Assembly (NCBI GenBank): GCA_013387205.1
Contig: WARV01000005.1
Location: forward strand, 27,924-91,923
Reading direction: 5' to 3'
Origin: Patescibacteria group bacterium
GTDB taxonomy: Bacteria; Patescibacteriota; Doudnabacteria; UBA920
DNA length: 64,000 bases
Under the pieces are notes generated by a model that ran no database searches, had not been told where the DNA came from, and saw nothing but the letters and a program-made list of their open reading frames with translations. The position numbers and the translations under genes were made by a program. Of this stretch, positions 27,053-49,211 are shown in pieces; within the stretch, counting starts at the first letter, position 1; the number at the start of each line of letters is the position of its first letter.

Positions 27053-27838
27053 CTAATTATCTTCTGTTTTTTTGCTATTTTTTACATCAAGCAATTCTAT
27101 TTTTCCTGATGTATTGTTTTTCCTTGAAGCCTTGGAATTTTCCGAATCGCGCGAATCATTAGTCTGCTGGTTGTCCTGCCTGCGTTCCTTGTCATTTTGG
27201 CTGCGCTTGTCTTCTTTGGAAGGCTTTCCTTGGTTATCTTCAATTTTAACTCCTTGCTTTTTGGCTTCATTGCTTAAGTCTTCAATTTTCTTCCTGATCT
27301 CTGACGCGTTATCGTTATTGCCTTTTCGTTCGTAGTCCTTTTCCACTTTTTGCAAAGAATTTATCGCCTGGTTAACTTCGGTTTTGGCTCGCCCTAAAGC
27401 TTCTTCTTTTTGCGGCTGCTGGCTTTGTGGTGTTTGCGGGTTGTCAATCGCCTTGAGTTCGTTAAGCCTTTCTTGGGCATGGTTTGCTTTAATGTATGCT
27501 TTTTTCTGCGGGCTTGGGGTGATATTCAGTTCAACATTTTCTTTGGCCATCTTAAGTTTATAAAGCGCGGTTCCTGGCAAGGCCTGGCTGGATGCGTAAA
27601 CCGCGCCGCTTAAAATTACGAACACGACAGCCAAGGCAAAAGATAACCTGGCAAGGCCAAAAGTCCACGAGGTTTTTTTTACCAACGTTAATTTCTGGTC
27701 CTGGGTAATGTTTGATATTTGGGCAAGCACGGAATTTCTTATCTGCTTTTGACTGTCTTTTGGCAAATTAAAAGATTCGCTAAGCTTGCTTAGCTCGGAT
27801 TGAATATCATCTTTTTTTCGGTTGTCAGCGGAGTTCAT
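27053..27838 (-). CDS. Putative anti-sigma factor-like membrane protein (single TM, DUF5667-like extracytoplasmic segment, K/E/Q-rich tail)
   Basis: 261 aa. Overlaps the upstream ECF sigma gene by 14 nt. One TM helix (FGLARLSFALAVVFVILSGAVYA) followed by LPGTALYKLK, then a low-complexity charged tail. Confidence 0.55.
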   Translation of the reverse strand: MNSADNRKKDDIQSELSKLSESFNLPKDSQKQIRNSVLAQISNITQDQKLTLVKKTSWTFGLARLSFALAVVFVILSGAVYASSQALPGTALYKLKMAKENVELNITPSPQKKAYIKANHAQERLNELKAIDNPQTPQSQQPQKEEALGRAKTEVNQAINSLQKVEKDYERKGNNDNASEIRKKIEDLSNEAKKQGVKIEDNQGKPSKEDKRSQNDKERRQDNQQTNDSRDSENSKASRKNNTSGKIELLDVKNSKKTEDN

Positions 27839-28388
27839 GTTCAGGATATTGTTTGATTAGTGTTTGAAGTTTCTTTAAAGCCCGGTGCTGGGCCATTCTT
27901 ACGGAAAGCGAACTTTTGTTAAGCGCTTGGGCTGTTTCTTTTATGGATAAGTCAGATAAGAACCTTAACTCCAAAACTGTCCGGTAATTATCGGGAAGCT
28001 GTGAAAGCATCTGCCGCAGTTTTTCCGAGCTGAGATTTTTGTCCAAATCCTGCTCGCTGTTTAAAGATGCCGGGGCGTCTAAATTATCAAAAATTTCCAC
28101 GGTCTGGATGATGCGGGAATTTTTCCGGTAATGGTCGGTTATGGCATTGAGCGCTATTTTATAAAGCCAGCCGGAAAAACTTCCGGCGTCGGGATTAAAC
28201 AAAGGCAAGCCCTTCCAGGCTTTGATGAAAGTTTCCTGAAGCAGATCTTCGGCTTGCTGGTTGCCGCTGGTTTTAGCGCGGATAAACCTGTAGAGCGGCT
28301 GGCTGAATTGGTCATAAATCACGCCAAAAGATTCCGTACTGCCGGACTGCGCTTTTTTTATATGGTTTGAAAGTTCGTCCTTTTCCAA
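27825..28388 (-). CDS. ECF-type RNA polymerase sigma factor (sigma-70 family regions 2 and 4)
   Basis: 187 aa. Region 2 (QETFIKAWKGLPLF, SGWLYKIALNAITDHYRK) and region 4 HTH (LSIKETAQALNKSSLSVRMAQHRALKKL). Confidence 0.85.
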   Translation of the reverse strand: MEKDELSNHIKKAQSGSTESFGVIYDQFSQPLYRFIRAKTSGNQQAEDLLQETFIKAWKGLPLFNPDAGSFSGWLYKIALNAITDHYRKNSRIIQTVEIFDNLDAPASLNSEQDLDKNLSSEKLRQMLSQLPDNYRTVLELRFLSDLSIKETAQALNKSSLSVRMAQHRALKKLQTLIKQYPEHELR

Positions 28389-28670
28389 TTTGGTAAACGA
28401 TAATTTATTGGCCTTTGTTTCTATATCTACTATTTAAATATTACAGCTTTGGGGAATTGTTGGCAAAAGCCGTTTTTGATAAAAAACAGGCTTGCGCGGC
28501 ATTTTATTGCCGCGCAAACCTCATTTGCCTTCCTTAAAATCGCTCGAGCCGCCTTAAGGAAAGCGTGTTTCCATGGGTTTTTCCAAAATTACCCAACTAC
28601 ATATACGTTGGCAATAAAATTTTGTTTCTTTTGTATAGAAAAATCATCGTTGGAAATTAGTAGGTATTTT

Positions 28671-28701
28671 AAAAACACCAACCGATCGGTTGGTGTTTTT
28701 A
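28671..28701. terminator. Bidirectional terminator (perfect palindrome)
   Basis: aaaaacaccaaccgatcggttggtgttttt is an 11-bp stem with an A-run on one side and a T-run on the other. Confidence 0.65.
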
Positions 28702-28877
28702 TGGCTGAACAAGACTGTCTGGTACGGGTATTGTAAGGGATTTAGGGAGTCTTTGCTAGCCCTTAGGAGGCACTACGGTCACTTTTGGCTACAAACAAAA
28801 TGTTACAAATGTTACACCATTTCGTGGGGTACTGTAACATGTAATTTTTTAGGGTTGGCGCAACTCCAAATCAACGC

Positions 28878-30011
28878 TCAAAGTTTCTTCAAAGCTTCAA
28901 TAAAACTGGGGTCATTTATGTACGCTTCGACGATGATTTTAATGTAATTAAAAGCAATTTCCACAAAATCAAACATATCACTATCTTTCCGTCCCGTTAC
29001 ACTCCTCATGTACCGATCCAAAGCGTTCCAGTCCCCGTGGGCAATCATGGACCTAATGTCGTAAAGATTTTTAAGCTTTTTAACTGCGGCTGCAAAATCA
29101 CCCTTGTTTTTTTGTTTTATTAGTACTCCAGCTTTCAGTTGAAACTGTTTGCTAATAGAGTCTTCGACATTAAACCTTGAGTAATCCGGATTATGGGTCA
29201 GTAAAAATTCTATGATGCTAACAAGCATGAGTAATTGCATTCTAGAATTGATCGTATTTTCATTGACATTGCGGATCATCTCGCCGACAAACATCAATTT
29301 CCCTTTTTGCTCCGACGATAGCAAATCAATTCTTTCACCCCAACGCACCATGTCATCTATCCGCCCCATCACTGTTTGGTAGTCAAACTCCTTGAATTTT
29401 TTATCAGGAAAAGATAATTGATGCAGGTATATGAACAATTCTTGGGTGAGTGAACGTTTTTCAGTTTCCAGTTCAATGGTCTTAGTCAAACGCCCCTCAA
29501 AAACATCTAAAAATAGTAAGGATAGGATAGCTGCAAAATTTGAAGCGTTTTCTTCCCTAACAGCACCAACTTCATTGCCTTGTAAAATAAACAACCCCCG
29601 TTCCTTGCGCTTTCTCATTTGCCGTTGCTCTTCTCTGAGTTTTTCAAAAAAACCTTCATCATCAAAACGTACAATGAGCCAGCTATTAGCTAGGTAATTA
29701 AAAGCTTCTTTTGGATCGTAATGTTTTAGGAAAGTTTTATCAATGTATTCATTTTTTTGACTTTTTTGTTTAAGCCCAATAAGTATTTTCTTTAGGTATT
29801 TTTTATGCAAAATAGTTTTCCCCTCAGACATAAAAAAATAATTTTTTAGCCTTTTATCATCGTCCCGAAATTCAATGTGCTCTTCTAAAAGCTGCCGAAA
29901 GTAAGATTGTTCGTTAGGGGTGCGTGGGTTGTCTAGTTCAATTTTCCAATATTTTGATAAGGTAATTTTTTTGTTTAAAGGGAAGACTCCTTTTAGTGGA
30001 ATTATATTCAT
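28878..30011 (-). CDS. Hypothetical protein with C-terminal HEPN-like Rx4H motif (Abi-like)
   Basis: 377 aa. The C-terminus LKNLYDIRSMIAHGDW contains R-x4-H (RSMIAH), the minimal HEPN RNase motif seen in Abi_2/AbiD/AbiF-type proteins. The N-terminal 300 aa are unassigned. Confidence 0.45.
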   Translation of the reverse strand: MNIIPLKGVFPLNKKITLSKYWKIELDNPRTPNEQSYFRQLLEEHIEFRDDDKRLKNYFFMSEGKTILHKKYLKKILIGLKQKSQKNEYIDKTFLKHYDPKEAFNYLANSWLIVRFDDEGFFEKLREEQRQMRKRKERGLFILQGNEVGAVREENASNFAAILSLLFLDVFEGRLTKTIELETEKRSLTQELFIYLHQLSFPDKKFKEFDYQTVMGRIDDMVRWGERIDLLSSEQKGKLMFVGEMIRNVNENTINSRMQLLMLVSIIEFLLTHNPDYSRFNVEDSISKQFQLKAGVLIKQKNKGDFAAAVKKLKNLYDIRSMIAHGDWNALDRYMRSVTGRKDSDMFDFVEIAFNYIKIIVEAYINDPSFIEALKKL

Positions 30012-30022
30012 GTATTTAAAAT

Positions 30023-31039
30023 TTATTCGTTTGCTAACTTATTATTTTTCGTTCTTTGCGCCAAATTTTCCGGACCTTTCGGCCCAGTCTTATCAATACA
30101 GTCTACATTCATTATATTCTTGGCACCGGCTGGCAGTTGGAAGCTTAGATCGTGGATATTTTTTTGGACTTCTTTTTCGGTAAGGGTTTGCATATAGCCC
30201 AGAATCTTATAATCCTTCAGCGCTTCCATGGGGTTTGTATGGTAAATCCATGGCTCCGAATGGTACCAGTCCTCTCCATCCTTTTTAAACTTAATTAAAG
30301 GCCATTTAGTAAGCTTTTTGGGCGGCAGGACGTCTTTTTGATCATCTATCAGGAAAACCTGGCAATGCGCCCGTCCTGAAGCATTAGGGATTATCCTGGG
30401 TTTGAGCAGTTCTTCCTTAACCAGCCTTTTTAAGCCGTAGCGGTTAATAAAAAAGCTGTGTTCCAGATCCAGGGCCGAATACCAGGTTTCCTCGTCGCTG
30501 GCGACGGTTGCCGGGATGATATTATCATCAATCGCTTTCTGGCAGATAAGACATTTAACCCCGTGCTCGTCGTACCAGGTTTCCTGGTCAGATACTGACC
30601 TGCCGCAAATAGCGCAGGAATAGCCCTGGCCTTCCAAATGGAATCCTTTGGGAAATTCTTTCAGTTTTTCTTTGCGTTTCCATTCTGTGAGGCCGATATC
30701 ATACATCACTTCAGCATACTGCTTCAGCCAAAATTCGGACTCGTTCAATTCTGATTCGGTCACCTCCCGGCCCGTATGCTTTTCCAGGATGTCTTTCAGC
30801 TCGGCTTTCATCTTATCCCTGTTTTTCTGCGCCTTGATTTCCGAAGACTTAGTCCGGTGTATTATTGGAGGGATGTAATGGGGAGGTTCTTTTAAGATTG
30901 GCTCTTGGGGTGCCGCTTTGAGAATATCGTCATTTTTTAAATCCGTTTTTAAAGCAGGCTGAACACGCACGGCTGTTCCGCACTGGCCGCAAAATTTATC
31001 ACCCATTTCCAATTTGTTGCCGCAATTCGTGCAGAACAT
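30023..31039 (-). CDS. Hypothetical protein with N-terminal zinc ribbon and an internal Cys4 cluster
   Basis: 338 aa. CTNCGNKLEMGDKFCGQCG at the N-terminus and CAICGRSVSDQETWYDEHGVKCLICQ internally. Separated from the HEPN-like gene by only 11 nt. Confidence 0.5.
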   Translation of the reverse strand: MFCTNCGNKLEMGDKFCGQCGTAVRVQPALKTDLKNDDILKAAPQEPILKEPPHYIPPIIHRTKSSEIKAQKNRDKMKAELKDILEKHTGREVTESELNESEFWLKQYAEVMYDIGLTEWKRKEKLKEFPKGFHLEGQGYSCAICGRSVSDQETWYDEHGVKCLICQKAIDDNIIPATVASDEETWYSALDLEHSFFINRYGLKRLVKEELLKPRIIPNASGRAHCQVFLIDDQKDVLPPKKLTKWPLIKFKKDGEDWYHSEPWIYHTNPMEALKDYKILGYMQTLTEKEVQKNIHDLSFQLPAGAKNIMNVDCIDKTGPKGPENLAQRTKNNKLANE

Positions 31040-31043
31040 ATTT

Positions 31044-31316
31044 TTAATTTGGGATTATGTTACAGAACAACATATGTGTCCCGCCATACCTAATATCAAA
31101 CAAAGTATAGTAACTTATTTCTACGCTGTTAATACTCCGCTCGGTGATCTTTGCCGTACGATAAAGCGAATTAGGAAATTTAGATACTTCCTGCTGAGCC
31201 AGCTTTACGCAGGGGCCGGAACCTAAACCAGCATTTCGAATAAGGACTTTGGGTATTGCGAGGCCGATTATCAGAATCAGGATAAGAGTTGTAAGGATAA
31301 CAACCGATTTTTTCAT
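31044..31316 (-). CDS. Small hypothetical membrane/secreted protein
   Basis: 90 aa with an N-terminal hydrophobic helix (VVILTTLILILIIGLAI). The stop is 4 nt from the next gene, and the gene abuts the mltG stop. Confidence 0.4.
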   Translation of the reverse strand: MKKSVVILTTLILILIIGLAIPKVLIRNAGLGSGPCVKLAQQEVSKFPNSLYRTAKITERSINSVEISYYTLFDIRYGGTHMLFCNIIPN

Positions 31317-32368
31317 TACTGGTTTTTTAAGTACTGGTTGATATTGGCCTGGTGTTCCTCATAAGTCTTGGCACAATGAATCTGCTTGTTGGAATCATGC
31401 AGATAATACAGACACTCGGTTTCTGCTGGGTATAGCGCAGCTTTAATAGCATCAATTCCCGGGTTGTCTATCGGGTGGGGCGGCAGGCCTTTGTAGAGAT
31501 ATGTATTGTAGGGCGAATCGATCTTTTCATCGGCAGGGGTAATCGGCGTCCACCAGGTGCCGTCGATTTTATAGTTTGTGCTCTGGTAAAGCCCGGGCTC
31601 CTTGCCGTAGTGGGCCAGGCTGTCGCGAGCGTACTGCACCGTAGCGTCTATCTCCAACTTCATGCCCTTAAGCAGGCGGTTCCAGATTACACCTGATATT
31701 ACTGGAGCATCGTCTTTGCCTGCCGCTTCCCGCTGGACTATGGAAGCGACTTTCAGCAACGTGTCCCATTTGATGTTCTGGTTTAAGGCTTCCTTGGAGT
31801 AAGGTGCAAATTCTTCATTAAATTTAACCCTTAGGCGCTGGGCGGTTTGCAGCGGCGTTTCGCTTACCGGAATCAAATAGGTATCGGGAAAATACACCCC
31901 TTCCAGATAGTCAAAATTTAAGGCTGTATAATTGGTTATGAATTTATCCTGGTCTTCGTCGCTCCAGCCTAAGTTTTTGGCCATGATGGAAGCGATTTGT
32001 TCTTTACGCAAACCTTCGGGAATAGTAACCCATTTCATATCAGGCTCACGGGTTAAATGGTTTTCCACCAAGTCCCAAGCAGAAGAACTTTTAGAAATGC
32101 TATAGCTGCCCGGCTTAATGGTTGCACCCCTGCCTTCAATTTTCATAGCCCAATTAAAACCTAACTTACTCTTGATGAAGCCTTTGGTATAGAGGCTGTT
32201 AACGATATCCTGCTGGGAAGCGTTTTGGGAAACCGTGAAAGCTTCGGGCTTAGCTCCTTTTTCGGGAGCACCAAATAATGCCAAATAGGCAAAAATTATA
32301 GTTGCGGCAATGACGATTATGCCGCCAAATGCCGTTCCTGCAATTATTGCAAGCTTTTTATTAAACAT
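31316..32368 (-). CDS. mltG: Endolytic murein transglycosylase MltG (YceG family)
   Basis: 350 aa with an N-terminal TM helix. YceG signatures GVYFPDTY, ASIVQREAA and VIWNRL. Confidence 0.9.
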   Translation of the reverse strand: MFNKKLAIIAGTAFGGIIVIAATIIFAYLALFGAPEKGAKPEAFTVSQNASQQDIVNSLYTKGFIKSKLGFNWAMKIEGRGATIKPGSYSISKSSSAWDLVENHLTREPDMKWVTIPEGLRKEQIASIMAKNLGWSDEDQDKFITNYTALNFDYLEGVYFPDTYLIPVSETPLQTAQRLRVKFNEEFAPYSKEALNQNIKWDTLLKVASIVQREAAGKDDAPVISGVIWNRLLKGMKLEIDATVQYARDSLAHYGKEPGLYQSTNYKIDGTWWTPITPADEKIDSPYNTYLYKGLPPHPIDNPGIDAIKAALYPAETECLYYLHDSNKQIHCAKTYEEHQANINQYLKNQ

Positions 32369-32407: not shown

Positions 32408-34885
32408 TTATACAAAACTTTCTGCTTCAAATATTAATATATCGTTTTCGTTATTGGTTTTCATCGTATCGATAAGATTCTGGCGGTACTGGACTACGTC
32501 TTGCTCTAAGTCAAAGCTTAAAAATTCCTGGTATTTTTCATTCAGCAATTTTGCTAATTCCATTGAAAAACCATTTTTCAATAAACAGATAATGTGCGGA
32601 TTATTTGTTCCGTATTTAACGTGGTCGTAAAAATCCGAATCAACCAAATCGAGGTCTTTCAAAATTTCCAGATACTTGAGGATATAGAAATCTACAAATT
32701 CCTGCTCTTCTTTTATTTTGGCTACGGCTAGGTTTATCCTCTGTACCTCGTTTTTTTCGCTGATGTTCACATATAAGCTTTGGTGCCCGTCTCCGCCGGT
32801 GCGGTCGCCCCACTTGGCGCCAACGTACACTAGGACATCTCCTCCCGCCTCCCTCCTTTTCCAGTAAGCGAGAAAACGGCTAATCATGAGCGGATACGGA
32901 GCCCCTTGGGACCGCCATGCTATAAACATGGAGTAAAAATTTCTCGCGATTTCATTGCCCTTTATACGGGCAATATTATCACTGCCACTTTTTAAGGTTA
33001 TGCCTTCAAAGAAAATCTTAACGATGGCATTGATTAAAGTTTCTGCACTGTTCATTTTTGGATTGCCCACTTCATTATAGTAAGCAAGATTGGCATTCAG
33101 TATTTGCTCGCTTTCTAAGATATTAAAGTCGTGTATATTGTTAGCAAAACACAGCCTACCCAATTCAGTTGCCGGAGCCGGTATGTCCGTAAGGCCGGAA
33201 GATCCGGGTTCAACATTTTCCAAGTAGGAAAGGACCTGCTTTGTTTTTTCTGTGTTTTCAGACTTCTCTAATAAAGGATTTTCTACAGTGTCTTCATGCT
33301 TGACCCCGGAATTCACCTTTTTATGATAAAAGGAGAGGGGCGAAAAACCCTTCGGAGAATAGGCTCCCCTCATCAAATAAATTTCCGGCTCAAGCAGCTT
33401 AAGGCTGCCCGATTCCAAGTCAAAAACTTCCTTGAAGCGGCAGACCCGGCCTATAAGATTTTTAAACTGGGAAGCGCTGAGGTGGCTCCTGCCTTTTTTA
33501 GGATTTAGTATGAAAATTTTCTGCGCCGGAATATTAACCCCTTCCAATAAAGTCGAGGTTGTGATGATAAATTCAAATTCTGGATTTTTTGAGAATATTT
33601 CTTCGATGTATAATTTTATAACATCGGGAATTCCGCCATGGTGGTAGAGTATCCCGTGCTTTATGCACTCAATTAGATTATATTCGGGATGGATTAGTTC
33701 GCTGATGGATTCGATAACCTTGTTTATTACCGGTGTTAAGGCTATGGGATTTTTTTGCCGTGCAAAGCTTAACGAAAAATCTTCAACGGTAACAGGCCGG
33801 TTAAGATAAATGATATTTTTATTAGCTTTGTGAGCCATGATGAACGCCACATCCGTGCGGTAATGTTTATTTGGTATGGGAAACGCCTGATCTAAAAATT
33901 GGTCATAAAAGTGCATGTTTTGCGTTCTGGTATCGTAAGCGTAAAACCTTTCGACTTTCATATACTCCTCGATCTTTTGGCCCCTCACCGCAATCTGGTG
34001 GTTTTTGATGCTCAGACTGCCAGTGTCTATCAGAAAGGGCGTAAAAAAATTTACCAGAGCCCTCTCGTTGCGCTTCTTTAATATCAGCAATACCTGAGCC
34101 AGCAGATGCGCTCGCTCGGAATCTTCCAAAATATTATGGGCTTCGTCAACCAGAGCCAAGTCCAAAGACAGCTGCTGGTGCTTCTGCAGCAAAATTAAAA
34201 GCCGCTCCTGGGTTAATACTGCCAAAAACGACTGGTCGGTTTCCCTGAACATATCGGGGTGGGTAATAATCTTTTTGAAATTTTGCCTTATCATCCCGTC
34301 TTTCAATAAGTTATGTTTGGTCTGCGCCAACAAGGCTTTGCTGGGTACGACGATACATATTTTTTTGTTTGGATAATTCCGAACCTTTCGCACGATCATC
34401 TCTGACTTTCCATAAGAAGTCGGGGCGACCACGGCGATATTGTCCTCAGTCAGGGAAAATTTGTTTAAAGCCAACTGACCTAACGACCTGTATAGGTTGG
34501 CGCCGTCCCCCTCGATTTTAAAAGATTCCTGGTATGCAGAAATGTAGAGATTGGAAAACGAATCCCTGCTATTTTCTCCGTTGGCATACTTGTTCTCAAT
34601 AAATTTTACTATGGGAATGTAGTCCCTGCTCAGCGCGACGTCTCTAAGGGGTTCGTAATCGCTAAATTGGTTTGCATACTTAAGTATGATCCTATAACCA
34701 AGCCGCTCGATATCAGGATCATCAGAGTTAAGGAAATAAACCGCAACTTTTAAAATAAATATTTTATTTTCTTCGGAAATATTTGCGCCGCCCAAGACTA
34801 ATTTTTTATAGACATTTAGAAACAGTGAGCCGTCAAGGTTCTTTTTGTTCCGGATCTTTTTTAGCGTCAGTTCGTAAATGTCCAT
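32408..34885 (-). CDS. hamB: SF2 (Ski2/Hel308-like) helicase, Hachiman HamB-like
   Basis: 825 aa. Motif I VVAPTSYGKS, motif II LVDEAHN, motif V ITTSTLLEGVNIP, motif VI QFKNLIGRVCR. Start overlaps the stop of the upstream DUF1837-like gene (shared nt 34885). Confidence 0.6.
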   Translation of the reverse strand: MDIYELTLKKIRNKKNLDGSLFLNVYKKLVLGGANISEENKIFILKVAVYFLNSDDPDIERLGYRIILKYANQFSDYEPLRDVALSRDYIPIVKFIENKYANGENSRDSFSNLYISAYQESFKIEGDGANLYRSLGQLALNKFSLTEDNIAVVAPTSYGKSEMIVRKVRNYPNKKICIVVPSKALLAQTKHNLLKDGMIRQNFKKIITHPDMFRETDQSFLAVLTQERLLILLQKHQQLSLDLALVDEAHNILEDSERAHLLAQVLLILKKRNERALVNFFTPFLIDTGSLSIKNHQIAVRGQKIEEYMKVERFYAYDTRTQNMHFYDQFLDQAFPIPNKHYRTDVAFIMAHKANKNIIYLNRPVTVEDFSLSFARQKNPIALTPVINKVIESISELIHPEYNLIECIKHGILYHHGGIPDVIKLYIEEIFSKNPEFEFIITTSTLLEGVNIPAQKIFILNPKKGRSHLSASQFKNLIGRVCRFKEVFDLESGSLKLLEPEIYLMRGAYSPKGFSPLSFYHKKVNSGVKHEDTVENPLLEKSENTEKTKQVLSYLENVEPGSSGLTDIPAPATELGRLCFANNIHDFNILESEQILNANLAYYNEVGNPKMNSAETLINAIVKIFFEGITLKSGSDNIARIKGNEIARNFYSMFIAWRSQGAPYPLMISRFLAYWKRREAGGDVLVYVGAKWGDRTGGDGHQSLYVNISEKNEVQRINLAVAKIKEEQEFVDFYILKYLEILKDLDLVDSDFYDHVKYGTNNPHIICLLKNGFSMELAKLLNEKYQEFLSFDLEQDVVQYRQNLIDTMKTNNENDILIFEAESFV

Positions 34886-35700
34886 TATTGTGGTACAGGC
34901 TGTTGAATTGCCCGCAGCTCTTCATTTAAAAACTGTTCAATTTTGGAATAGGTCGACTTTTGAATGCAAAACAAAATAAGGCCTGCGAAAGCACCTTCTC
35001 CTTTTATAGCAGTCAAGCGGTCTCGGACCGCCTCGTGGGAAATTTTATTCGTGATGTCATGGAATAAAACAGAAACTAAGATCGCGTTTTTCTTGGTTCC
35101 TGGAGTTTGTTGGATTTCAGTAATGTCCCCATCCAACAATTCCTTTACCTTTTTCCTGTCGCCCTGGGCCAAGCTTAGGCTGACGTCCATAATAACGCTT
35201 TGCCACAAGTTCGGCCGTCTCCCTTGAAGAAATTCCTGCATCGCAGTTTTTGACTCGTCCAGCAACTTTTTGTTTTTTGCATCCGGCCCCTCGTCGTTGC
35301 CGGTCTCGCCTGATTTAACTTCGCCATACCAAATAGCGTTGCCACTGACCTCAACATATGTCAGGTCAAATCCCTTTCTTATGCTCTGTTCTTCCTTATT
35401 AAAAAAGATTGTAATTTTTTTCAGGTTCGGCAAAAATTTATCAATAACGAGGTGGGCAATGAATTCTCCCATCATGCCTTTTTTTGTCTGCGATGACTTG
35501 CTGGAGTATCGCTTGATAAATTCAGCCAAAGTGTTTTTATACGAATGGATTCCCAGCGTAAATTCTTTTACTTCATTTTTGCCATGACAAATAGCGCTTA
35601 ATTCGCTTCTGATTAAGCCTTTAATTTCCTCGCTCAATTCGTTTATGTGGCAAACTACAAACCCGTCTTCTTGCGTAACGTTTATGCCCTTCATACGCAT
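34885..35700 (-). CDS. hamA: HamA-like (DUF1837-type) predicted PD-(D/E)xK nuclease
   Basis: 271 aa, the typical HamA size. Candidate catalytic core GFDLTYVEV ... YGEVKSG (D ... E-V-K). Directly coupled to the helicase gene. Confidence 0.55.
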   Translation of the reverse strand: MRMKGINVTQEDGFVVCHINELSEEIKGLIRSELSAICHGKNEVKEFTLGIHSYKNTLAEFIKRYSSKSSQTKKGMMGEFIAHLVIDKFLPNLKKITIFFNKEEQSIRKGFDLTYVEVSGNAIWYGEVKSGETGNDEGPDAKNKKLLDESKTAMQEFLQGRRPNLWQSVIMDVSLSLAQGDRKKVKELLDGDITEIQQTPGTKKNAILVSVLFHDITNKISHEAVRDRLTAIKGEGAFAGLILFCIQKSTYSKIEQFLNEELRAIQQPVPQ

Positions 35701-36258: not shown

Positions 36259-37416
36259 TTATTGATTGTTCTTTAACGCCGCATAAGTTGCCAGCACATT
36301 CTGCATAGCCGTCTTTTCTGCCGCTGTGATGTCGCGGTCTTTGTAGTACTTATCACCCTCGTAGCGCATCTTGGTTTTCGTTCCGGCAAGGACAGCGTTG
36401 ATAATTTTCATTTCGTCATCACCAACCAGGGTGACCGAAGTTTCCCAGACCGTGCTGTTATTATCCCGGCTGACTGAGAGCGGAATGTAGTTATAGTTTA
36501 CTCCGTCTATGTTGAAGATATATTTGTTAACGAACAGCCAGTCGTCGCCGTGGTAAGTCACTTTCATCCAGAGAGTCGGTTGTCCGTTATCCGGTTTGTC
36601 GATCAGCAGCATTACAACGCTCTGCCAATAGCTGGGAGGAAAGCCCTTGTCATAATAAGTCGTGGTCTTTTTAATATCATCATAATCAGAACCCATTTTA
36701 GACAGGACGGCTTTGGTCTTTGCGTCAGCTTCTGCTTTGGCCTTTGCCTGGGCTTCCTGGTCGACCTTGGCTTTAGCGGCAGCTTCAGCATCAGCCTGCG
36801 TCTTGGCTGTTTTTTCTTCCTCGGTGAAGATGCGTTTTACGCTTAAAGTATTAGTAGTCTTTTTGCCGCCATTAGTAGCAGTAATATTAATTTGGTTTCT
36901 GCCTTCGTTCGGGACAGGAGTCTGGTAATCAAAGCTGCCATCTTTTTGAACAGTAACTCGTTTATTGTTTATGAGCAGCATTGACCCTGCTGGATTGACC
37001 TTGCCTTTGACGCTGACTGTTTTGGCCTGGACGGTATAGCCACTCGCAGGTTCAGTAATAGTAAGGGAAGGCGCACGGCCTGCATAAGCAGTGGAGATTT
37101 TTAAAACCGCAAATACCAGGACGATAGCTACAGTGGCAATCGTGTTGGTCTTTGCGGTAAACTTGGTTTTTTTCCAGAGGAACCAGATTCCGGCACCTGG
37201 GATAGTCAGGTACCACAGGAACGGAGTTAGGATAACTAATAGCACTATAGCGGAAATCTTTAAGATCTTTTTGATTCCCGCTGACTGGCTTGGCATGTGC
37301 GGCAGGGCTGCCGCAACTGCTGGTTGTGCAGAGGCCGGGACAAGGCTCTTTTTGCAGTGCCTGCAAACGGTAGCCTGATCCTGGATGTCCTCGGCGCAAT
37401 AGGGACATTTTTTCAT
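36259..37416 (-). CDS. Zinc-ribbon membrane protein with extracytoplasmic Ig-like and A/K-rich segments (paralog 2)
   Basis: Start set at MKKCPYCAEDIQDQATVCRHC (13 codons inside the track ORF). Two TM helices, a beta-rich domain, then an AKAKAEADAKTKA-type low-complexity stretch. GC-rich. Confidence 0.55.
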   Translation of the reverse strand: MKKCPYCAEDIQDQATVCRHCKKSLVPASAQPAVAAALPHMPSQSAGIKKILKISAIVLLVILTPFLWYLTIPGAGIWFLWKKTKFTAKTNTIATVAIVLVFAVLKISTAYAGRAPSLTITEPASGYTVQAKTVSVKGKVNPAGSMLLINNKRVTVQKDGSFDYQTPVPNEGRNQINITATNGGKKTTNTLSVKRIFTEEEKTAKTQADAEAAAKAKVDQEAQAKAKAEADAKTKAVLSKMGSDYDDIKKTTTYYDKGFPPSYWQSVVMLLIDKPDNGQPTLWMKVTYHGDDWLFVNKYIFNIDGVNYNYIPLSVSRDNNSTVWETSVTLVGDDEMKIINAVLAGTKTKMRYEGDKYYKDRDITAAEKTAMQNVLATYAALKNNQ

Positions 37417-37440
37417 TGTAGTTTCCTTGATCGGTTTTTC

Positions 37441-37570
37441 CTGGCCGGATAACATAAAGGCCCCCGCCAGGAGCTCGACCCTTTCGGGCCGAACGCATGG
37501 GTTTCCCCATACGACCGATCAAGGAACCCTGACGAGGGGTTCTATATCTTGATCGGATTTTTTGACCATA
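37441..37570. other. GC-rich structured element (candidate ncRNA or structured 5' leader)
   Basis: An ~130-nt island of ~60% GC in AT-rich DNA. Long-range stem ccttgatcgg ... ccgatcaagg encloses ggcccccgccaggagctcgaccctttcgggcc. An extra hairpin gaaccctgacgaggggttc and a third cttgatcgg copy follow. The overlapping track ORF 37052-37522 is probably spurious. Confidence 0.3.
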
Positions 37571-37958: not shown

Positions 37959-39257
37959 ATGTCAACACAAAAAGGAACGAAAACAACTTGCTTGCAATGG
38001 CACAACGAAAAGCGCAGGGTCAAAGACCTGCTGCCGTGGGATAAAAATCCCAGAACTCTTTCCGAAGAGCAGGAAGAACACCTAAAGGAATCTATCTCCA
38101 AATTTAATTTGGCAGAGATTCCCGTAATCAACCTGGACAATAAAATTGCCGCGGGACATCAACGTTTGAAAATTCTGCATCTGCTCGGCAGGAGCAATGA
38201 GATAATCGATGTAAGGGTGCCAAACCGCAAACTGACCCAAAAAGAGTTTGAGGAGTATAACCTCAGGAGCAATGCAAACGTGGGCTCATGGAATTATGAA
38301 ATGCTTTTGGAGCACTTTGAGATCGACACTCTCTTGGAGATCGGGTTTGACGAGCAGGCTTTGGCAGACGTGTGGGATGGCATGCTCGAAACGGAGGACG
38401 ATAATTTGGACTTGGAAAAAGAAATCAAAAAAGCCCAGAGCACCAAAATTAAGCCTGGGGATATGTTTTCCTTAGGCAGGCACACTTTACTCTGCGCCGA
38501 TAGCCTTGAACTTAAAAACATTAAGCGCCTGGTCTGCAACCAAAAAATGGACGTGTTGTATGTAGATTTACCCTATAATACAAAACTCTCGTACTCTGAA
38601 GGCGTTGGCAAGAAGCGCAACTATGGCGGCCATACCAATGACAACAAAACCGATGCCGAATATGAGCAGTTTGTTACGACTATGGTTAGCAATGGATTGG
38701 CAGTTTCCAAACCCGATGTCCATAGTTTCTTCTGGTGTGATGAAAGGTATATTGGGTTATTTCAGAAAGTCTTTGCCAACTGCGGCATTAATTCGCTCCG
38801 CGTATGTTACTGGCTCAAGAACGGCTTTAACGTGACACCGCATGTGGCCTTTAATAAAGTTTTGGAAGCTTGCGTCTACGGTACGGTTGGCAAGCCCTAC
38901 TTAAATCCAAACGCTACAAATTTGCATGAGTTGCTTAACAAAGAACTCGGCACTGGTAACCAGTTGGCTGATGACATTTTGGATCAGTTTAACATTTGGC
39001 TGGCCAAGCGTGATGCCGGGCAAGATTACGAGCACCCGACCCAGAAGCCAATTACATTAGCCGAGCGCCCATTAAGGCGTTGCAGCAAACCAGGCGACAA
39101 TGTGCTGGACTTAACGGCTGGTAGCGGCTCGACAATATTGTCGTGCGAGCAACTTAAACGCCGCTGCTTTGCCTGCGAGATCGAACCAGTGTTTTGCCAG
39201 GTAATCATTAACAGATTTGAAACTTATGCCAAACAAAAAGTTAAAAAACTCAACTAA
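37959..39257 (+). CDS. ParB-like nuclease domain fused to N6-adenine/N4-cytosine DNA methyltransferase
   Basis: 432 aa. N-terminal ParB/Srx-like region (WDKNPRTLSEEQEEHLKESISKFNLAEIPVI). C-terminal MTase motifs: DLPYN (motif IV variant), HPTQKP, DLTAGSGST (motif I). Confidence 0.75.
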   Translation: MSTQKGTKTTCLQWHNEKRRVKDLLPWDKNPRTLSEEQEEHLKESISKFNLAEIPVINLDNKIAAGHQRLKILHLLGRSNEIIDVRVPNRKLTQKEFEEYNLRSNANVGSWNYEMLLEHFEIDTLLEIGFDEQALADVWDGMLETEDDNLDLEKEIKKAQSTKIKPGDMFSLGRHTLLCADSLELKNIKRLVCNQKMDVLYVDLPYNTKLSYSEGVGKKRNYGGHTNDNKTDAEYEQFVTTMVSNGLAVSKPDVHSFFWCDERYIGLFQKVFANCGINSLRVCYWLKNGFNVTPHVAFNKVLEACVYGTVGKPYLNPNATNLHELLNKELGTGNQLADDILDQFNIWLAKRDAGQDYEHPTQKPITLAERPLRRCSKPGDNVLDLTAGSGSTILSCEQLKRRCFACEIEPVFCQVIINRFETYAKQKVKKLN

Positions 39258-40008
39258 AGAAATTGAAATCAAATACGGTGACCAGTTTGCACTTGGCGAG
39301 CATAAGTTACTGTGTGCGGATGCCGCTGACACCAAAACCATTTCCGCTTTCATCGGCAACGCTAAAATCAGCCAGATAAACTGTGATGTTCCATACGGAA
39401 TTGAGTATGCCCAATCGAAGGCTGGCTTTGGCAAAATTAAGGTGGACAAGGAAATTTTAAACGACGATTTTGTCTCAGACAGCCAGTATGCAGCCTTTAC
39501 CAAATCCTGGCTGGATGCCGTGGTACCACACCTGGCCAAAAAGAATTCCGTGTATATCTTTAACTGCGATAAAATGTTGTTTGCCCTTCGTGACGGTATG
39601 CAGCAAGCTGGAGTGAAATTTTCCCAGCTTCTCATCTGGATCAAGAGCCAGGCAGTCATTGGACGCAAAGATTATCTGCCAGCCCACGAACTTATTGCTT
39701 ATGGCTGGGCCGGAACTCACGAGTTCCACCGTTCCAAAGACAAAAGCGTACTGTATTATCCTAAGCCTTCCAAAAGTCCACTTCACCCGACTCAAAAACC
39801 AGTTGGCCTTATTCGTAAGTTAATTCTGAATAACACGAAAATTGGGGATACGGTTTACGACTGCTTTAGTGGTAGCGGAACTTGTTTAATTGCTTGCGAG
39901 CAAACCAGGCGTAAATGCTTGGCGGTTGAACTTGACCCACAGTATTGCCAGACTATTATTACCCGCTACGAAAAATTAACAGGTATTAAGGCTAAAAAGT
40001 TAACTTAA
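39217..40008 (+). CDS. DNA methyltransferase (N6-A/N4-C, beta-class), paralog of the preceding MTase domain
   Basis: 263 aa. DVPYG (DPPY variant), HPTQKP and DCFSGSGT motifs. Overlaps the previous gene by 41 nt. Confidence 0.75.
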   Translation: MKLMPNKKLKNSTKEIEIKYGDQFALGEHKLLCADAADTKTISAFIGNAKISQINCDVPYGIEYAQSKAGFGKIKVDKEILNDDFVSDSQYAAFTKSWLDAVVPHLAKKNSVYIFNCDKMLFALRDGMQQAGVKFSQLLIWIKSQAVIGRKDYLPAHELIAYGWAGTHEFHRSKDKSVLYYPKPSKSPLHPTQKPVGLIRKLILNNTKIGDTVYDCFSGSGTCLIACEQTRRKCLAVELDPQYCQTIITRYEKLTGIKAKKLT

Positions 40009-40012
40009 GTTT

Positions 40013-40447
40013 ATGATTACCGACAAACAAAAACAATTATTACTTGAGCAATTGAGAAAAACGCCGATCATCCAGTTGGCTACTGAAAAAACCGGCATCT
40101 CTCGCATGACTTACTATCGCTGGAGACGGGAAAGCCAAAAGTTTAAAAGGGCGGCTGACGAAGCCTTGGCCCAGGGAGAGCTCCTGATTAACGATTTATC
40201 TGAAGGGGTGCTCATATCTTTAATTAAGGAGAAAAATTTTCAGGCAGTTTCCCTGTGGCTAAAACAACACCATCCTAAGTATGCGGCAAGGTTAGAAATT
40301 TCCGGCCGCATCGAGCATGAAGACGGCAATCTTTCGGCTAAGCAAAAAGCCATTATTAAGCAGGCCCTGCGCCTGTCTATGATTAACAAACAAAACTACT
40401 ATGAACAAAGAAAAGGAGTTCCAAAAGATCCAGCACTGGATGCTTAG
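40013..40447 (+). CDS. Terminase small subunit-like HTH protein
   Basis: 144 aa. HTH (LATEKTGISRMTYYRWRRE) and an LWLKQHHPKYA-type segment typical of phage TerS. Immediately upstream of terL and overlapping it. Confidence 0.5.
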   Translation: MITDKQKQLLLEQLRKTPIIQLATEKTGISRMTYYRWRRESQKFKRAADEALAQGELLINDLSEGVLISLIKEKNFQAVSLWLKQHHPKYAARLEISGRIEHEDGNLSAKQKAIIKQALRLSMINKQNYYEQRKGVPKDPALDA

Positions 40448-41900
40448 TGACATTAAAGTCAGGAGGGAAATCGTTACCAAAGACCACAGTTGGTTTTTCA
40501 GCTATTACTTAACCGGCCACCACGACCTGGAAACCGCCCCTTTCCAGCACGAGATGCTGGCTATCACCGAAGACCCAAAAGTCGATTTGGCGGTGATAAC
40601 CGCCTTTAGGGACAGCGGCAAAAGTACTATTTGTACCCTGTCTGGCGTATTGTGGTCGGTCTTAGGATGCCAAAAGAAAAAGCTGGTTATCATTATCGGC
40701 AAGACTTTAGACAAAGCCCAGACCCATCTGGTCAACATCAAGCACGAGTTGGAAAATAATGAGATGCTCAGGAAAGACTTAGGGCCTTTCCAAGAAATCA
40801 GTGGTCAGTGGGGCCTTCAGGCTTTGATTATTCCAAAGTACAATGCCAAGATCATGGTAAGCTCAGTCGGCCAATCCGTGCGTGGTGAAAAATATTTGCA
40901 AAGCCGCCCTGACCTGATTATTTTGGACGACGTGGAAGATCTGGAATCCGTCAAAACCAAAGAGAGCCGTGACGGCCTCTGGAACTGGTTTGTCGGCGAA
41001 GTCCTGCCTGCCAGAAGCCATAACAATTCCAAAGTCATCGTGGTAGGCAACCACCTGCACGAAGATTCGCTGCTTAAAAAGCTTCAAAAGAAAATTGAAG
41101 CCGGGGAAATTGACGGGATCTACCGTGAATATCCGATTATGGATAAAGATAAAAATCCCTTGTGGCCAGCCAGGTATCCTGACATGGCGGCTATCGAAGC
41201 CAAAAGAAAAAGTACTATGGACGAGCGAGCCTGGTACCGCGAGTTTTTGCTAATTATTCTGCCTGACGACGACCAAATCGTTAAGTCTGAATGGCTGCAG
41301 GAGTACGAACCTGGACAGCTTCCTGATAAGGATTTTCGCTATGCGGCGATGGGTGTGGATCTGGCTATCTCCCAACGCAGTAAGGCAGATAGTACCGCAA
41401 TAATTCCGGTTTATGTTTACGGAAACCAAGAAAACCTCAAAGTTTACCTGCTGCCACACCCAATCAACAAGCAGATGACAGGGTTGGAAACTTTGCAAAC
41501 ACTTAAAAATCTGTCTGACACTTTAAGCACAAGAGGCCGTGCCAAAATTTTTATCGAGAACAACGGCATGCAGCAGGTATTTGTTGAACAATTACAGAAC
41601 GCAGGATATCCGGCAGTAGGTATGCCTTCTTACGGCTCTGACAAACCGGGTAGGTTTAAATCCATCAGCCACTTGATCCAGGGAGCTAAAGTTTTCTTTC
41701 CCAAAGGGTGTTATCAAGAACTGCGGCAGCAGATGCTGGGCTTTGGCGTGGAAGCCCATGATGACTTGGTTGACGCCCTGACTTTACTGCTCCAAGGTGT
41801 AATGAAGGAAGATAGGCCAGCATGCAGGACTGGATGTTTTCCAGTGCCGACATGGTCAACCGGTAGGACTGAGTTCGGAAAAAGCATTGCGGTGTATTAA
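40401..41900 (+). CDS. Phage terminase large subunit
   Basis: 499 aa. Walker A AFRDSGKST, Walker B LIILDDVEDL, and a C-terminal RNase H-like nuclease region with conserved acidic residues (GVDLAIS ... EAHDDLVDAL). Confidence 0.8.
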   Translation: MNKEKEFQKIQHWMLSDIKVRREIVTKDHSWFFSYYLTGHHDLETAPFQHEMLAITEDPKVDLAVITAFRDSGKSTICTLSGVLWSVLGCQKKKLVIIIGKTLDKAQTHLVNIKHELENNEMLRKDLGPFQEISGQWGLQALIIPKYNAKIMVSSVGQSVRGEKYLQSRPDLIILDDVEDLESVKTKESRDGLWNWFVGEVLPARSHNNSKVIVVGNHLHEDSLLKKLQKKIEAGEIDGIYREYPIMDKDKNPLWPARYPDMAAIEAKRKSTMDERAWYREFLLIILPDDDQIVKSEWLQEYEPGQLPDKDFRYAAMGVDLAISQRSKADSTAIIPVYVYGNQENLKVYLLPHPINKQMTGLETLQTLKNLSDTLSTRGRAKIFIENNGMQQVFVEQLQNAGYPAVGMPSYGSDKPGRFKSISHLIQGAKVFFPKGCYQELRQQMLGFGVEAHDDLVDALTLLLQGVMKEDRPACRTGCFPVPTWSTGRTEFGKSIAVY

Positions 41901-41908
41901 AATGGCCG

Positions 41909-42604
41909 CTAACAAACGAATTTTTTCTGTTTTTTGCTGTATGAACACTTAACCGCATCAGTTTTGCCGTCTGATAAGCATTGCCTTACCAACTCGATCA
42001 GCTGGTCAGATATGACTTTGCCTTTTTGGTATGCATAATGGTAACCGAAGTTGCCTTTGCTCGGATGCGGTACGCCAATGATTTTGCGATTAGGATAAAC
42101 GTAAGCCAGTAACTCAAAAGCGTGATTGCCCACAGCAATCAGCGGCGTATTTTCCGGTATTAGAGAAATTTCTTTACTGAGGTAATTGCTGATGCTGTAG
42201 CGTATGGTGTTGAGAGATAAGGCTTTAACGTTTTTATTGCTTTGGCATTTAACTAATTCTGTCCAGAGGATTGGGCCGGTTAAACCAGTCTTGTCAGCCA
42301 AGTCCCGTAGCGGACCATAAAAATTTATATAGTCTTTGCGATTGAGTTCCCAGTAGCGCACAGCAGCTGGGTAATTTCGGTTTGCCTTGTCTGTAAAATA
42401 TATGGTTTCCTCCGGCCTTGCACGGCCAGGGTTCATGCCGACAATGATAGCACTTTTGCCCTTGCGGCCGTCTATTTCGTAGTAAAGGCATCGGGCGATG
42501 ATGCCTTGTTCGGGTTGGTAGTCGATATCAGAAAAGCTTTGCCAGGTTTTGTCATCCATCATGCGCTGGCCAATTACGGCGATTTGTTCGGAGATTGATT
42601 GCAT
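41909..42604 (-). CDS. Uracil-DNA glycosylase superfamily protein (MUG/SMUG-like motifs)
   Basis: 231 aa. Motif A IIVGMNPGRA and motif B GVPHPSKGNFGY are spaced ~130 aa apart, as in the UDG fold. Confidence 0.55.
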   Translation of the reverse strand: MQSISEQIAVIGQRMMDDKTWQSFSDIDYQPEQGIIARCLYYEIDGRKGKSAIIVGMNPGRARPEETIYFTDKANRNYPAAVRYWELNRKDYINFYGPLRDLADKTGLTGPILWTELVKCQSNKNVKALSLNTIRYSISNYLSKEISLIPENTPLIAVGNHAFELLAYVYPNRKIIGVPHPSKGNFGYHYAYQKGKVISDQLIELVRQCLSDGKTDAVKCSYSKKQKKFVC

Positions 42605-43281: not shown

Positions 43282-44619
43282 TTAAGAAATTTTTACCAGT
43301 AGTAATGCTATGACATTTTCCATTGATTTAAATACAAGCGACAAAGTTTTGTCATCTTTTAAAATAAATCCTTTATGAGCATAAGCGCACCGTAATTTGT
43401 AAAGATCATTAAACCACGGCAGCAATTCCGGCTTTAGCGCATGAATGCCGCCGACAATATATTTCTTGTTGTCGCTATTCACATTTTTAGGTACAAAAAG
43501 GTGTTCCAAGCTGCAATACATAAGCAAAATTTTAGCGCCAAGATCTGGAATCTGAGTGGCAGAACTCAAGATGTCCAGCGTAGGTTGAATATCATTGACA
43601 CTCCTCTCAGTCCAAGGGTTTTTCAAGCTATCCAAAATTTTTTGGTTTTCTAAAAAGAACTTTTCTATTCCGCCAAACGTACGATCGTCGATATACATCT
43701 TAGCCAGGCCTCGGTAGCCGTAAGACAAAAACAGGCAGCCATCGGGCGTCTTTAGCCAAGGTTCTCTTTTGTCTTCGTCCCAACTAAAAACTCCCAAGTA
43801 GCCGCTGTTTAGAAGGACAGGCGAAGTTGGCGCTTCCAGCCTAACGTCAGATTGCCCGAAATCCATCTGTGGCCGGTAGATGAAACTGGCGATTCGCAGC
43901 ATATTAAAAAAAGTTCTGAGCCAAGCGGAAGCGTACCAGTAGGCATAAGTCATCGATCCTTCGGTTGCAAATCCTATGGAAGGAGAGTGAAAAAAATTTT
44001 TGGCTTCTTTTTTATTATACTGTCGTAAATGGGGTTGGTATTGTTGATGTTTGGCAACAAGCTGGCTGGCTTTCAAAAAACAGACAAACGGCAGACTAAG
44101 TTTTGCAAATAAGCCGTCAAAAAATGCCTGCACGTCTCCAAATGGAGTATCGAAATACGAGACTGTGGTTACTAACGTCTGCGATTGAACAAATCCTTTC
44201 AAGCGCTCGAAATATTCCTCAATGATTGCCTGATATCCTTTTGTTTTATCACGCCAAGGCACTACGAATTGACTTTCGTCAACATACGACCCGCCCCCAA
44301 CCCTTTTGTGATATTCCTTTTCATCACTAAATTCAAAAGCCATTTTGCAGCGAAATAAAATATTAGTTACGTCAGCGGGAGAAATTTTCAGGCCTTTATC
44401 GACGAAGTATTCGCACTCTTTCTGTATTAAAGGCAGCAAAAAACGCTGGTGATAATATTGTTCTTTACCCCATTTATCAACGGGTGGCATCAATTTGGCA
44501 AGAGAGGCTTCTGTATCAGCCACTCGCTCGAGATGTAGCCACATCTGCTCACCAATTTGGTTTTTGACGGTTTGTAAAAAAGAAGTCGGCATAGATATAT
44601 TGTAGCACTTTTCGGCCAA
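43282..44619 (-). CDS. Hypothetical protein with C-terminal HEPN-like Rx4H motif
   Basis: 445 aa. The C-terminus NDLYKLRCAYAHKGF contains RCAYAH (R-x4-H), analogous to the motif in the 28878-30011 protein. Confidence 0.45.
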   Translation of the reverse strand: MAEKCYNISMPTSFLQTVKNQIGEQMWLHLERVADTEASLAKLMPPVDKWGKEQYYHQRFLLPLIQKECEYFVDKGLKISPADVTNILFRCKMAFEFSDEKEYHKRVGGGSYVDESQFVVPWRDKTKGYQAIIEEYFERLKGFVQSQTLVTTVSYFDTPFGDVQAFFDGLFAKLSLPFVCFLKASQLVAKHQQYQPHLRQYNKKEAKNFFHSPSIGFATEGSMTYAYWYASAWLRTFFNMLRIASFIYRPQMDFGQSDVRLEAPTSPVLLNSGYLGVFSWDEDKREPWLKTPDGCLFLSYGYRGLAKMYIDDRTFGGIEKFFLENQKILDSLKNPWTERSVNDIQPTLDILSSATQIPDLGAKILLMYCSLEHLFVPKNVNSDNKKYIVGGIHALKPELLPWFNDLYKLRCAYAHKGFILKDDKTLSLVFKSMENVIALLLVKIS

Positions 44620-44722
44620 ACTAGCGGCTTTTCCTTAGCTTTCCGGGGTCTGGACTTCCTCTGCAATTTGAGTCATTCCTTTGATTGTGAGTGATATTTT
44701 GTATATAATTAATAAAGAAGCT

Positions 44723-49136: not shown

Positions 49137-49211
49137 TGGCTGGGGTGGAAGGATTCGAACCTTCGAATGGCGCCTCCAAAGGGCGCTGCCTTACCACTTG
49201 GCGACACCCCA
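49137..49211 (-). tRNA. tRNA-Gln (anticodon UUG)
   Basis: 75 nt: UGGGGUG acceptor with U1:A72, D-arm GCCAAGUGGUAAGGC, anticodon stem GCGCC/GGCGC with loop CUUUGGA, T-arm GAAGGUUCGAAUCCUUC, discriminator G, encoded CCA. Confidence 0.8.

Follow-up and report, generated by a model that had tools for sequence, protein, structure and literature searches.

A probable stand-alone HEPN-type gene, not conserved with its neighbours, in a defence-rich locus of a Patescibacteria genome

We analyzed a 64,000-nucleotide (nt) stretch of DNA from a Patescibacteria group bacterium of the Doudnabacteria lineage (assembly GCA_013387205.1, contig WARV01000005.1, positions 27,924 to 91,923), here called the window, in whose coordinates all positions are given. 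The subject of the analysis is a string of three closely spaced open reading frames (ORFs) at 28878-31316, which encode proteins of 377, 338 and 90 amino acids (aa). The original prediction, made from the letters of the DNA alone, took them for a module in which an Abi-like HEPN effector is partnered by a double Zn-ribbon protein and a membrane protein. The three ORFs, their coordinates, the 11-nt and 4-nt spacings between them and the mltG and sigma flanks are all as described there. The same holds for the RSMIAH sequence near the end of the 377-aa protein, which is the sole R-x4-H of that protein (residues 320-325), for the two Cys4 clusters of the 338-aa protein (C3/C6/C17/C20 and C142/C145/C163/C166) and for the hydrophobic segment at the N-terminus of the 90-aa protein. 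The locus comprises the following features, listed in the order of minus-strand transcription:

34885-35700, minus strand: HamA of a Hachiman system, 271 aa (Pfam HamA, 3.2e-8), overlapping HamB at 34885
32408-34885, minus strand: HamB of the same system, 825 aa (PADLOC, 2.3e-71)
31316-32368, minus strand: mltG, a YceG-like lytic transglycosylase gene (Pfam YceG, 5.9e-72)
31044-31316, minus strand: 90-aa ORF, 4 nt upstream of the Zn-ribbon gene, its ATG overlapping the mltG stop codon
30023-31039, minus strand: 338-aa Zn-ribbon ORF, 11 nt upstream of the 377-aa gene
28878-30011, minus strand: 377-aa ORF, probably a stand-alone HEPN-type ribonuclease (RNase) gene
28670-28701, minus strand: terminator-like hairpin (-19.4 kcal/mol, z = -5.8; perfect 14-bp stem)
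28488-28521, minus strand: terminator-like hairpin (-27.5 kcal/mol, z = -5.7; 14-bp stem with 9 GC pairs, T run)
27825-28388: ECF (extracytoplasmic function) sigma gene, downstream of the 377-aa gene
27053-27838: DUF5667 anti-sigma-like gene, beyond the ECF sigma gene

Minus-strand transcription thus passes in order through HamA, HamB, mltG and the 90-aa, 338-aa and 377-aa genes. Both hairpins lie in the 489-nt intergenic region that separates the 377-aa gene from the ECF sigma gene, about 150 nt apart. The one at 28670-28701, about 180 nt past the 377-aa stop codon, could act in both directions because its stem is flanked by A and U runs; the one at 28488-28521, before the sigma gene, is the stronger. 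A scan of 28380-28900 against Rfam gave sub-threshold noise only, and there is no convincing ORF between the two hairpins.

The relationships among the three genes were assessed by comparing homologous loci, which are designated below by L numbers. In tblastn searches, neither the Zn-ribbon protein nor the 90-aa protein has a homologue in any of the 57 loci that encode a member of the 377-aa family, and this family is in turn absent from all 96 loci with a Zn-ribbon relative. When the neighbours of the 377-aa family were clustered across 52 loci, no recurrent neighbour emerged. A 283-aa gene upstream of the L001 homologue and a 284-aa gene downstream of the L004 homologue were considered as candidate partners, and both proved unrelated to the Zn-ribbon protein. 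The three nearest relatives of the locus cease to resemble the window at ~30066-30092, at the 3' end of the Zn-ribbon gene, beyond which each continues differently:

L154: 87% nt identity over the Zn-ribbon gene, then a 140-aa transmembrane protein
L069: 76% nt identity over the Zn-ribbon gene, then an unrelated ORF of >169 aa
L066: 74% nt identity over the Zn-ribbon gene, then a 424-nt gap and a DUF4382 gene

The genes also differ in base composition. The GC content of the 377-aa gene is 0.359 and its GC content at third codon positions (GC3) is 0.365, the lowest GC3 in the neighbourhood, compared with 0.450 and 0.516 for the Zn-ribbon gene and 0.462 and 0.524 for mltG. From the lack of co-occurrence, the break in synteny and the gap in GC, we conclude that the 377-aa gene is an independently acquired cassette in a variable slot.

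The genes upstream of it behave as a separate, vertically conserved string. The mltG, 90-aa and Zn-ribbon genes are syntenic in loci L066-L069. The 90-aa protein, whose N-terminal hydrophobic stretch reads as an anchor or signal, has no family match in Pfam, NCBIfam, PADLOC or PHROGs and is lineage-restricted, with only two homologue clusters (78-80% identity), both of which lie in the order mltG, 90-aa gene, Zn-ribbon gene. This string is co-oriented and probably co-transcribed with the 377-aa gene, without any functional tie to it.

These comparisons bear directly on the proposal that a 377-aa HEPN effector, a Zn-ribbon sensor or antitoxin and the 90-aa membrane protein make up a dedicated three-gene defence module. 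The genes do share a strand, their spacings are short, the minus strand showed no terminator-like hairpin separating them, and a HEPN_AbiU2 protein is encoded just after one other Zn-ribbon homologue. The 11-nt gap between the 377-aa and Zn-ribbon genes is compatible with co-expression and in this respect counts against a free-standing 377-aa gene. Against the module stand the complete lack of co-occurrence in the 57 and 96 loci, the closest relatives, which retain mltG and the 90-aa and Zn-ribbon genes without the 377-aa gene, the coupling of the 90-aa gene to mltG through the start/stop overlap, the GC3 gap of 0.15 between the 377-aa and Zn-ribbon genes, and the failure of the 377-aa family to keep any conserved neighbour. 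The original prediction had itself named neighbours that are not co-conserved in homologous loci as the outcome that would count against it, and this is what was found; the partnership of the 377-aa protein with the Zn-ribbon and membrane proteins is accordingly abandoned, and we consider a dedicated module highly improbable.

The 377-aa family is rare, patchy and uncharacterized. A search of 5.8 billion proteins retrieved 236 relatives, nearly all of them full length (374-405 aa), an exhaustive profile search of 1.84 billion representatives gave 424 clusters at 50% identity, and 51 loci were detected across 185,579 species genomes in one scan. A Patescibacteria subgroup is 45-56% identical to the query and the remaining relatives about 30%; the family is spread over at least 10 phyla, with members in Cyanobacteria, Bacteroidota, Acidobacteriota, Chloroflexota, Campylobacterota, Gammaproteobacteria and Firmicutes, among others. 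No homologue of the 377-aa protein was detected by tblastn among GenBank phages or PLSDB plasmids. In loci L038, L039, L042 and L045, the homologues are truncated or broken into two or more ORFs, which suggests frequent pseudogenization of the family. Fragmented copies are common among toxin-like genes.

An alignment of 86 family members sharing 25-56% identity reveals two blocks of strong conservation in the C-terminal part of the protein. Around the R-x4-H motif, Y317, R320, S321 and H325 are present in 100% of the sequences, G326 in 99%, and F328 is near-invariant. A second invariant block precedes it (E268...P275...N281-x-E283-D284-S285-I286...Q289...K293). In the N-terminal domain, D27-N28-P29 is invariant, and W111, R115, D118 and G120 are conserved in at least 90% of the members. 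An AlphaFold2 model built with the family alignment (predicted local distance difference test score, pLDDT, 89; predicted template modelling score, pTM, 0.89) consists of an alpha/beta N-terminal domain (~1-230) and an all-helical C-terminal domain (~233-377). The helices of the latter span residues 256-272, 283-302, 306-324, 328-339 (short), 347-366 and 368-376, and the R-x4-H sits at the C-terminal end of helix 306-324. In the model, this arrangement is compatible with the four HEPN helices H1-H4 plus an insertion past the motif helix, as in ApeA.

Taken by itself, an R-x4-H motif carries little weight, because 15 of the 50 window ORFs of at least 150 aa contain one. The conserved form in the 377-aa family is more specific: R320-S321-x3-H325 has the R-x4-6-H spacing of HEPN proteins with a polar residue after the R, and the R-S-x3-H-G pattern has the form usual for catalytic motifs of HEPN proteins (Anantharaman et al. 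2013, PMC3710099). When the 86 relatives were scanned against 24,736 Pfam models at E<=0.01, three of them had weak HEPN matches, two to HEPN_MAE_28990 (1.4e-3) and one to HEPN_RiboL-PSP (7e-3), all under the gathering thresholds; because the scan returned just seven weak member matches in total across all models, HEPN is strongly over-represented. In addition, NCBI, UniProt and JGI annotate four relatives as 'HEPN domain-containing' or 'Apea-like HEPN'.

Several searches weigh against assigning the protein to HEPN. The 377-aa query has no match in Pfam, NCBIfam, PADLOC or PHROGs, and neither the query nor the HEPN-labelled relatives have a Pfam HEPN match even at E<=10. PADLOC on the 86 relatives gave noise-level matches, none of them to ApeA, and a profile search of PDB sequences with the family returned nothing. 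Alignment of the family profile by hhalign with three single sequences of HEPN or HEPN-like proteins (the window 445-aa protein described below, one HEPN_Cthe2314 protein and one AbiJ-like protein) was non-significant. Foldseek with the 377-aa model found no match in PDB or BFVD even though the model is a confident one, and the HEPN fold must therefore be regarded as undemonstrated. Of the HEPN effector originally predicted, the invariant R-S-x3-H, the helical C-terminal domain, the weak HEPN matches and the labels thus speak in favour, while a fold match is lacking. On this evidence, we judge it likely that the 377-aa protein is a HEPN protein.

Its membership in named HEPN groups was also considered. 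The resemblance to Abi_2/AbiD/AbiF effectors noted in the original prediction does not extend to a profile match, as Pfam gave no Abi_2 match for the query at E<=10 and none for the 86 relatives at E<=0.01. Neither the query nor the 86 relatives match HEPN_Apea (PF18739) or the PADLOC ApeA models, and the 'Apea-like HEPN' labels that JGI or UniProt put on two relatives, P0068 and P0117, are third-party. A HEPN-MNT toxin-antitoxin pair was rejected as well: the gene is flanked by the Zn-ribbon gene and an intergenic region, and the family has no conserved small neighbour.

A further protein with the motif, of 445 aa, is encoded at 43282-44619 on the minus strand; it contains SLEHLF...LYKLRCAYAHKGF, with R-x4-H at residues 410-415, and has no Pfam or PHROGs match. 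Its gene is flanked by a 216-aa ORF without matches and by a UDG-family gene (41909-42604). Alignment with hhalign brings the motif regions of the 445-aa and 377-aa proteins together, but with a probability of 0.45% and E=0.13. The two proteins have the generic layout of the motif alone in common, and the suggestion that they belong to a local family of Abi-like effectors is not supported.

The lack of a significant fold or profile match to HEPN, together with the many metabolic genes near family members in other phyla, would also suit a protein that is not a defence RNase at all, be it a toxin of an unrecognized toxin-antitoxin pair, a factor with a housekeeping role in RNA processing, or a helical protein that is non-catalytic and uses its R...H motif for some different purpose. 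A housekeeping role is argued against by the patchy rarity of the family over at least 10 phyla, its pseudogenized copies and the foreign GC content of the gene, and a toxin-antitoxin pair by the absence of a small conserved adjacent ORF that could be the antitoxin. The invariant R-S-x3-H-G, typical of HEPN catalytic motifs (PMC3710099), likewise stands against this group of explanations, which we hold to be improbable.

The genomic surroundings of the family point in part to defence. In the window itself, Hachiman lies upstream of the gene. The close homologues with the best-sampled surroundings are those of L004 and L001. At L004 (5207-7128), an MvaI/BcnI restriction endonuclease gene ends 4 nt inside the start of the gene for a 375-aa homologue (46% identity), with a methyltransferase gene upstream and an AbiJ_NTD4-like gene downstream, and at L001 only two genes separate the homologue from a BsaWI restriction-modification system. 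The L004 arrangement suggests that the family is linked to restriction-modification genes in some genomes of the candidate phyla radiation (CPR), as has been reported for ApeA. Family members from other phyla are found near integrases, type II/IIG restriction-modification genes, AbiEii-like ATPases and a Tn3 transposase. It weakens the case for defence that many of the neighbours in these phyla are housekeeping genes, so that the defence-island signal is qualitative only.

Among characterized systems, the closest parallel is ApeA, a single-protein HEPN anti-phage system (Gao et al. 2020; bioRxiv 10.64898/2026.01.26.701840) of ~580 aa with N, Mid and split-HEPN domains, the N-terminal region of which forms a ligand pocket (bioRxiv 10.64898/2026.01.26.701840), and which is embedded in restriction-modification operons (PMC3710099). 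Like ApeA, the 377-aa protein is encoded by a single gene without an obligate partner (52 loci), has a C-terminal domain, probably of HEPN type, with R-x4-H and, in the model, an insertion past the motif helix, possesses an N-terminal region without known homologues and occurs near restriction-modification genes. It differs from ApeA in having two domains, of which a single 230-aa alpha/beta domain makes up the N-terminal part, and in the absence of an ApeA profile match. The lactococcal Abi_2/AbiD/AbiF proteins (PF07751) are also single proteins of ~350-400 aa with a C-terminal R-x-x-x-A-H-type motif; here, the difference lies in the lack of a profile match and in the N-terminal domain of the 377-aa protein, which is unrelated as far as testable. 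The HEPN_MAE_28990 and HEPN_RiboL-PSP proteins (Anantharaman et al. 2013), from the only HEPN families to give a signal, are likewise multi-domain proteins with variable N-terminal domains, and they are common in cyanobacteria; the query itself has no match to these models and the matches of other members remain below gathering thresholds.

The Zn-ribbon gene next to the 377-aa gene belongs to a Patescibacteria family with 122 relatives and 282 confirmed stretches in JGI metagenomes. Residues 2-23 of the window protein match Pfam Zn_Ribbon_1 (PF13240) at 1.3e-7, over the cut-off, through C3/C6/C17/C20, and this N-terminal ribbon (residues 1-23) is confined to a subgroup of the family. The second ribbon (C142/C145/C163/C166) is invariant in 76 homologues and has no profile match. 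The AlphaFold2 model (pLDDT 88.9) contains the ribbon at residues 1-23, a disordered linker, a helical hairpin (64-128) and a small C-terminal beta domain; the conserved core (~80-290) comprises the helical hairpin, the Cys4 ribbon, a beta-helix-helix-beta-beta segment and the small beta domain. Foldseek of the model against PDB gave no fold match (best E 0.36), and residues 1-128 match phrog_2546, of unknown function, at 4e-8. Judging by its sequence, the beta-helix-helix-beta-beta segment (186-230) may be a winged helix-turn-helix (HTH) of the excisionase/MerR type; membership in HTH_17 found no backing in a Pfam HTH match or a PDB fold match.

A recurrent neighbour of the Zn-ribbon genes is a divergent gene for a ParB-like DNA methyltransferase, usually followed by a TerS-like gene and the gene for the terminase large subunit (TerL). 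Of 49 non-duplicate Zn-ribbon loci whose upstream flank extends for 3 kb or more, 27 have homologues of this block in divergent orientation 0.3-6.8 kb upstream; among 53 loci with the 377-aa family, none does. In the window, the block is divergent from the Zn-ribbon gene, lies 6.9 kb from it, includes a match to phrog_498 at 1e-77 and consists of the following genes:

37959-39257, plus strand: ParB-like N6/N4 DNA methyltransferase (Pfam/PHROGs)
39217-40008, plus strand: second N6/N4 methyltransferase (Pfam/PHROGs)
40013-40447, plus strand: TerS-like ORF, 144 aa
40401-41900, plus strand: terminase large subunit (phrog_38 TerL, 1.3e-76)

No capsid or portal genes occur near this block (37959-41900), and no capsid genes occur in the window. 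One 55-kb IMG/VR contig (IMGVR_UViG_3300032737_000190; L150/L151) contains two Zn-ribbon-family genes, one of them with the methyltransferase/TerS/TerL block upstream.

Between the methyltransferase and the Zn-ribbon gene, the window carries a gene for a 398-aa protein, an ORF of 143 aa, the Hachiman system, mltG and the 90-aa gene. The 398-aa gene (36259-37455, minus strand) is the first of the leftward string and faces away from the methyltransferase; its product has an N-terminal Zn_ribbon_3 (9.5e-5) and a Glucodextran_B match (4.5e-13), and its N-terminus matches several PHROGs whose function is unknown. Rfam identifies a full-length LOOT RNA (RF03000; 37476-37598, minus strand; 77.5 bits versus a gathering threshold of 46.4) in the stretch from which this gene and the methyltransferase block diverge.

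The genes adjoining the Zn-ribbon homologues are highly diverse and often overlap them or lie a few nt away. They are often defence-related and include SMODS/AGS_C, SLATT_4, TIR_2, DUF4238, Peptidase_M78, HEPN_AbiU2, DUF5677 and an AAA_30 helicase. In the window, a complete Hachiman system, as defined by HamA plus HamB, is located directly upstream of mltG, as cargo that separates the methyltransferase block from the mltG/Zn-ribbon genes. The framework of L066 (GCA_021791515.1, 1-9278), from a related Patescibacterium, equals that of the window: the ParB-methyltransferase is followed by a LexA/S24 repressor, ThsB_TIR, a 233-aa protein, HEPN_Cthe2314, a 178-aa protein, SNase, mltG, the 90-aa gene and the Zn-ribbon gene, so that Thoeris-like/HEPN_Cthe2314/SNase cargo occupies the place that Hachiman has in the window. 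The locus resembles a hotspot for defence cargo in which conserved genes, namely the Zn-ribbon gene and the methyltransferase/terminase block, serve as the anchor.

Beyond this block, the window contains further genes for defence and mobility, starting with an N6/N4 methyltransferase gene (44681-45643) and a BamHI-family endonuclease gene (45647-46291; 6.7e-52). Next come a large serine recombinase gene (46391-47731), the gene for a SIR2_2 protein (47740-48759) and tRNA-Gln (49137-49211). We found no att-like repeats longer than 13 nt linking the intergenic region at 28.3-28.9 kb to the tRNA-Gln region or to other junctions, and the boundaries of an element are for this reason not definable.

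Defence hotspots flanked by conserved core genes are known from prophages and satellites such as P2/P4 (Rousset et al. 2022, PMC9122126). The present locus resembles them in having a conserved anchor and defence-rich slots that vary among close relatives, with Hachiman here, Thoeris-like/HEPN_Cthe2314/SNase genes in L066 and CBASS-like genes elsewhere. It differs in its Patescibacterium host, in having an anchor protein whose function is unknown and in that no complete prophage or satellite is delimited.

The Zn-ribbon protein could serve a phage-derived element as a DNA-binding regulator or as an anchor, and would then control any adjacent cargo, including the 377-aa gene, non-specifically. 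The divergent methyltransferase/TerS/TerL block in 27 of 49 loci and in the window, the tightly spaced, diverse and defence-rich genes beside the homologues, and the conservation of the second Cys4 ribbon and the HTH-like segment would all fit such a role. DNA binding is, however, read from a sequence pattern to which no Pfam HTH or PDB fold match corresponds, and Zn-ribbon homologues are absent from GenBank phages by tblastn and present in only 4 IMG/VR loci. We regard this explanation as rather unlikely.

With the alternatives weighed in this way, the balance of the evidence leans towards the 377-aa gene being a self-contained, horizontally acquired cassette that encodes a single-protein abortive-infection HEPN RNase in a variable slot. 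The proposal starts from the gene structure, the conservation of the family, the non-co-conservation with neighbours, the synteny break, the composition gap and the two-domain model; the HEPN fold, RNase activity, dimerization, N-domain sensing and defence role are inferred. The gene would have dropped into a slot just 3' of the conserved Zn-ribbon gene in a defence-rich hotspot. The C-terminal helical domain would carry the catalytic R320 and H325, and the protein would dimerize to form a composite, metal-independent RNase site, by analogy with HEPN enzymes (PMC3710099). By analogy with ApeA, the N-terminal alpha/beta domain might keep the protein inactive until an infection cue is sensed, whereupon cleavage of RNA (tRNA, mRNA or rRNA) would arrest the cell and result in abortive infection.

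A broader and more speculative interpretation, which we put forward tentatively, is that the Zn-ribbon/HTH-like protein marks a Patescibacteria-specific phage-derived element made up of the ParB-methyltransferase, the second methyltransferase, TerS and TerL, with no capsid genes close by. Its two flanking slots, one separating the methyltransferase from the Zn-ribbon gene and one just 3' of the latter, would constitute a defence-cargo hotspot, with the 377-aa protein as cargo from an unmodelled HEPN family with a new ligand-sensing N-domain.

The 377-aa gene probably adds to a known kind of gene, the single-protein HEPN abortive-infection or defence gene, and the anchor formed by the Zn-ribbon gene and the methyltransferase/terminase block is the more unusual feature of the locus. 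Close gene spacing in this CPR genome does not signal a functional module here. Because PADLOC and Pfam have no model for the 377-aa family, current defence finders miss it; if the family is an active HEPN RNase, it would add an unmodelled single-gene abortive-infection candidate, and its new N-terminal sensor domain could merit structural and ligand studies, as for ApeA. The combination of a conserved anchor and variable defence cargo could be used to mine Patescibacteria genomes for defence genes, and, if the phage-derived element exists as outlined, it would represent the first described satellite-like or hotspot architecture, together with a new single-gene defence family, in CPR bacteria.

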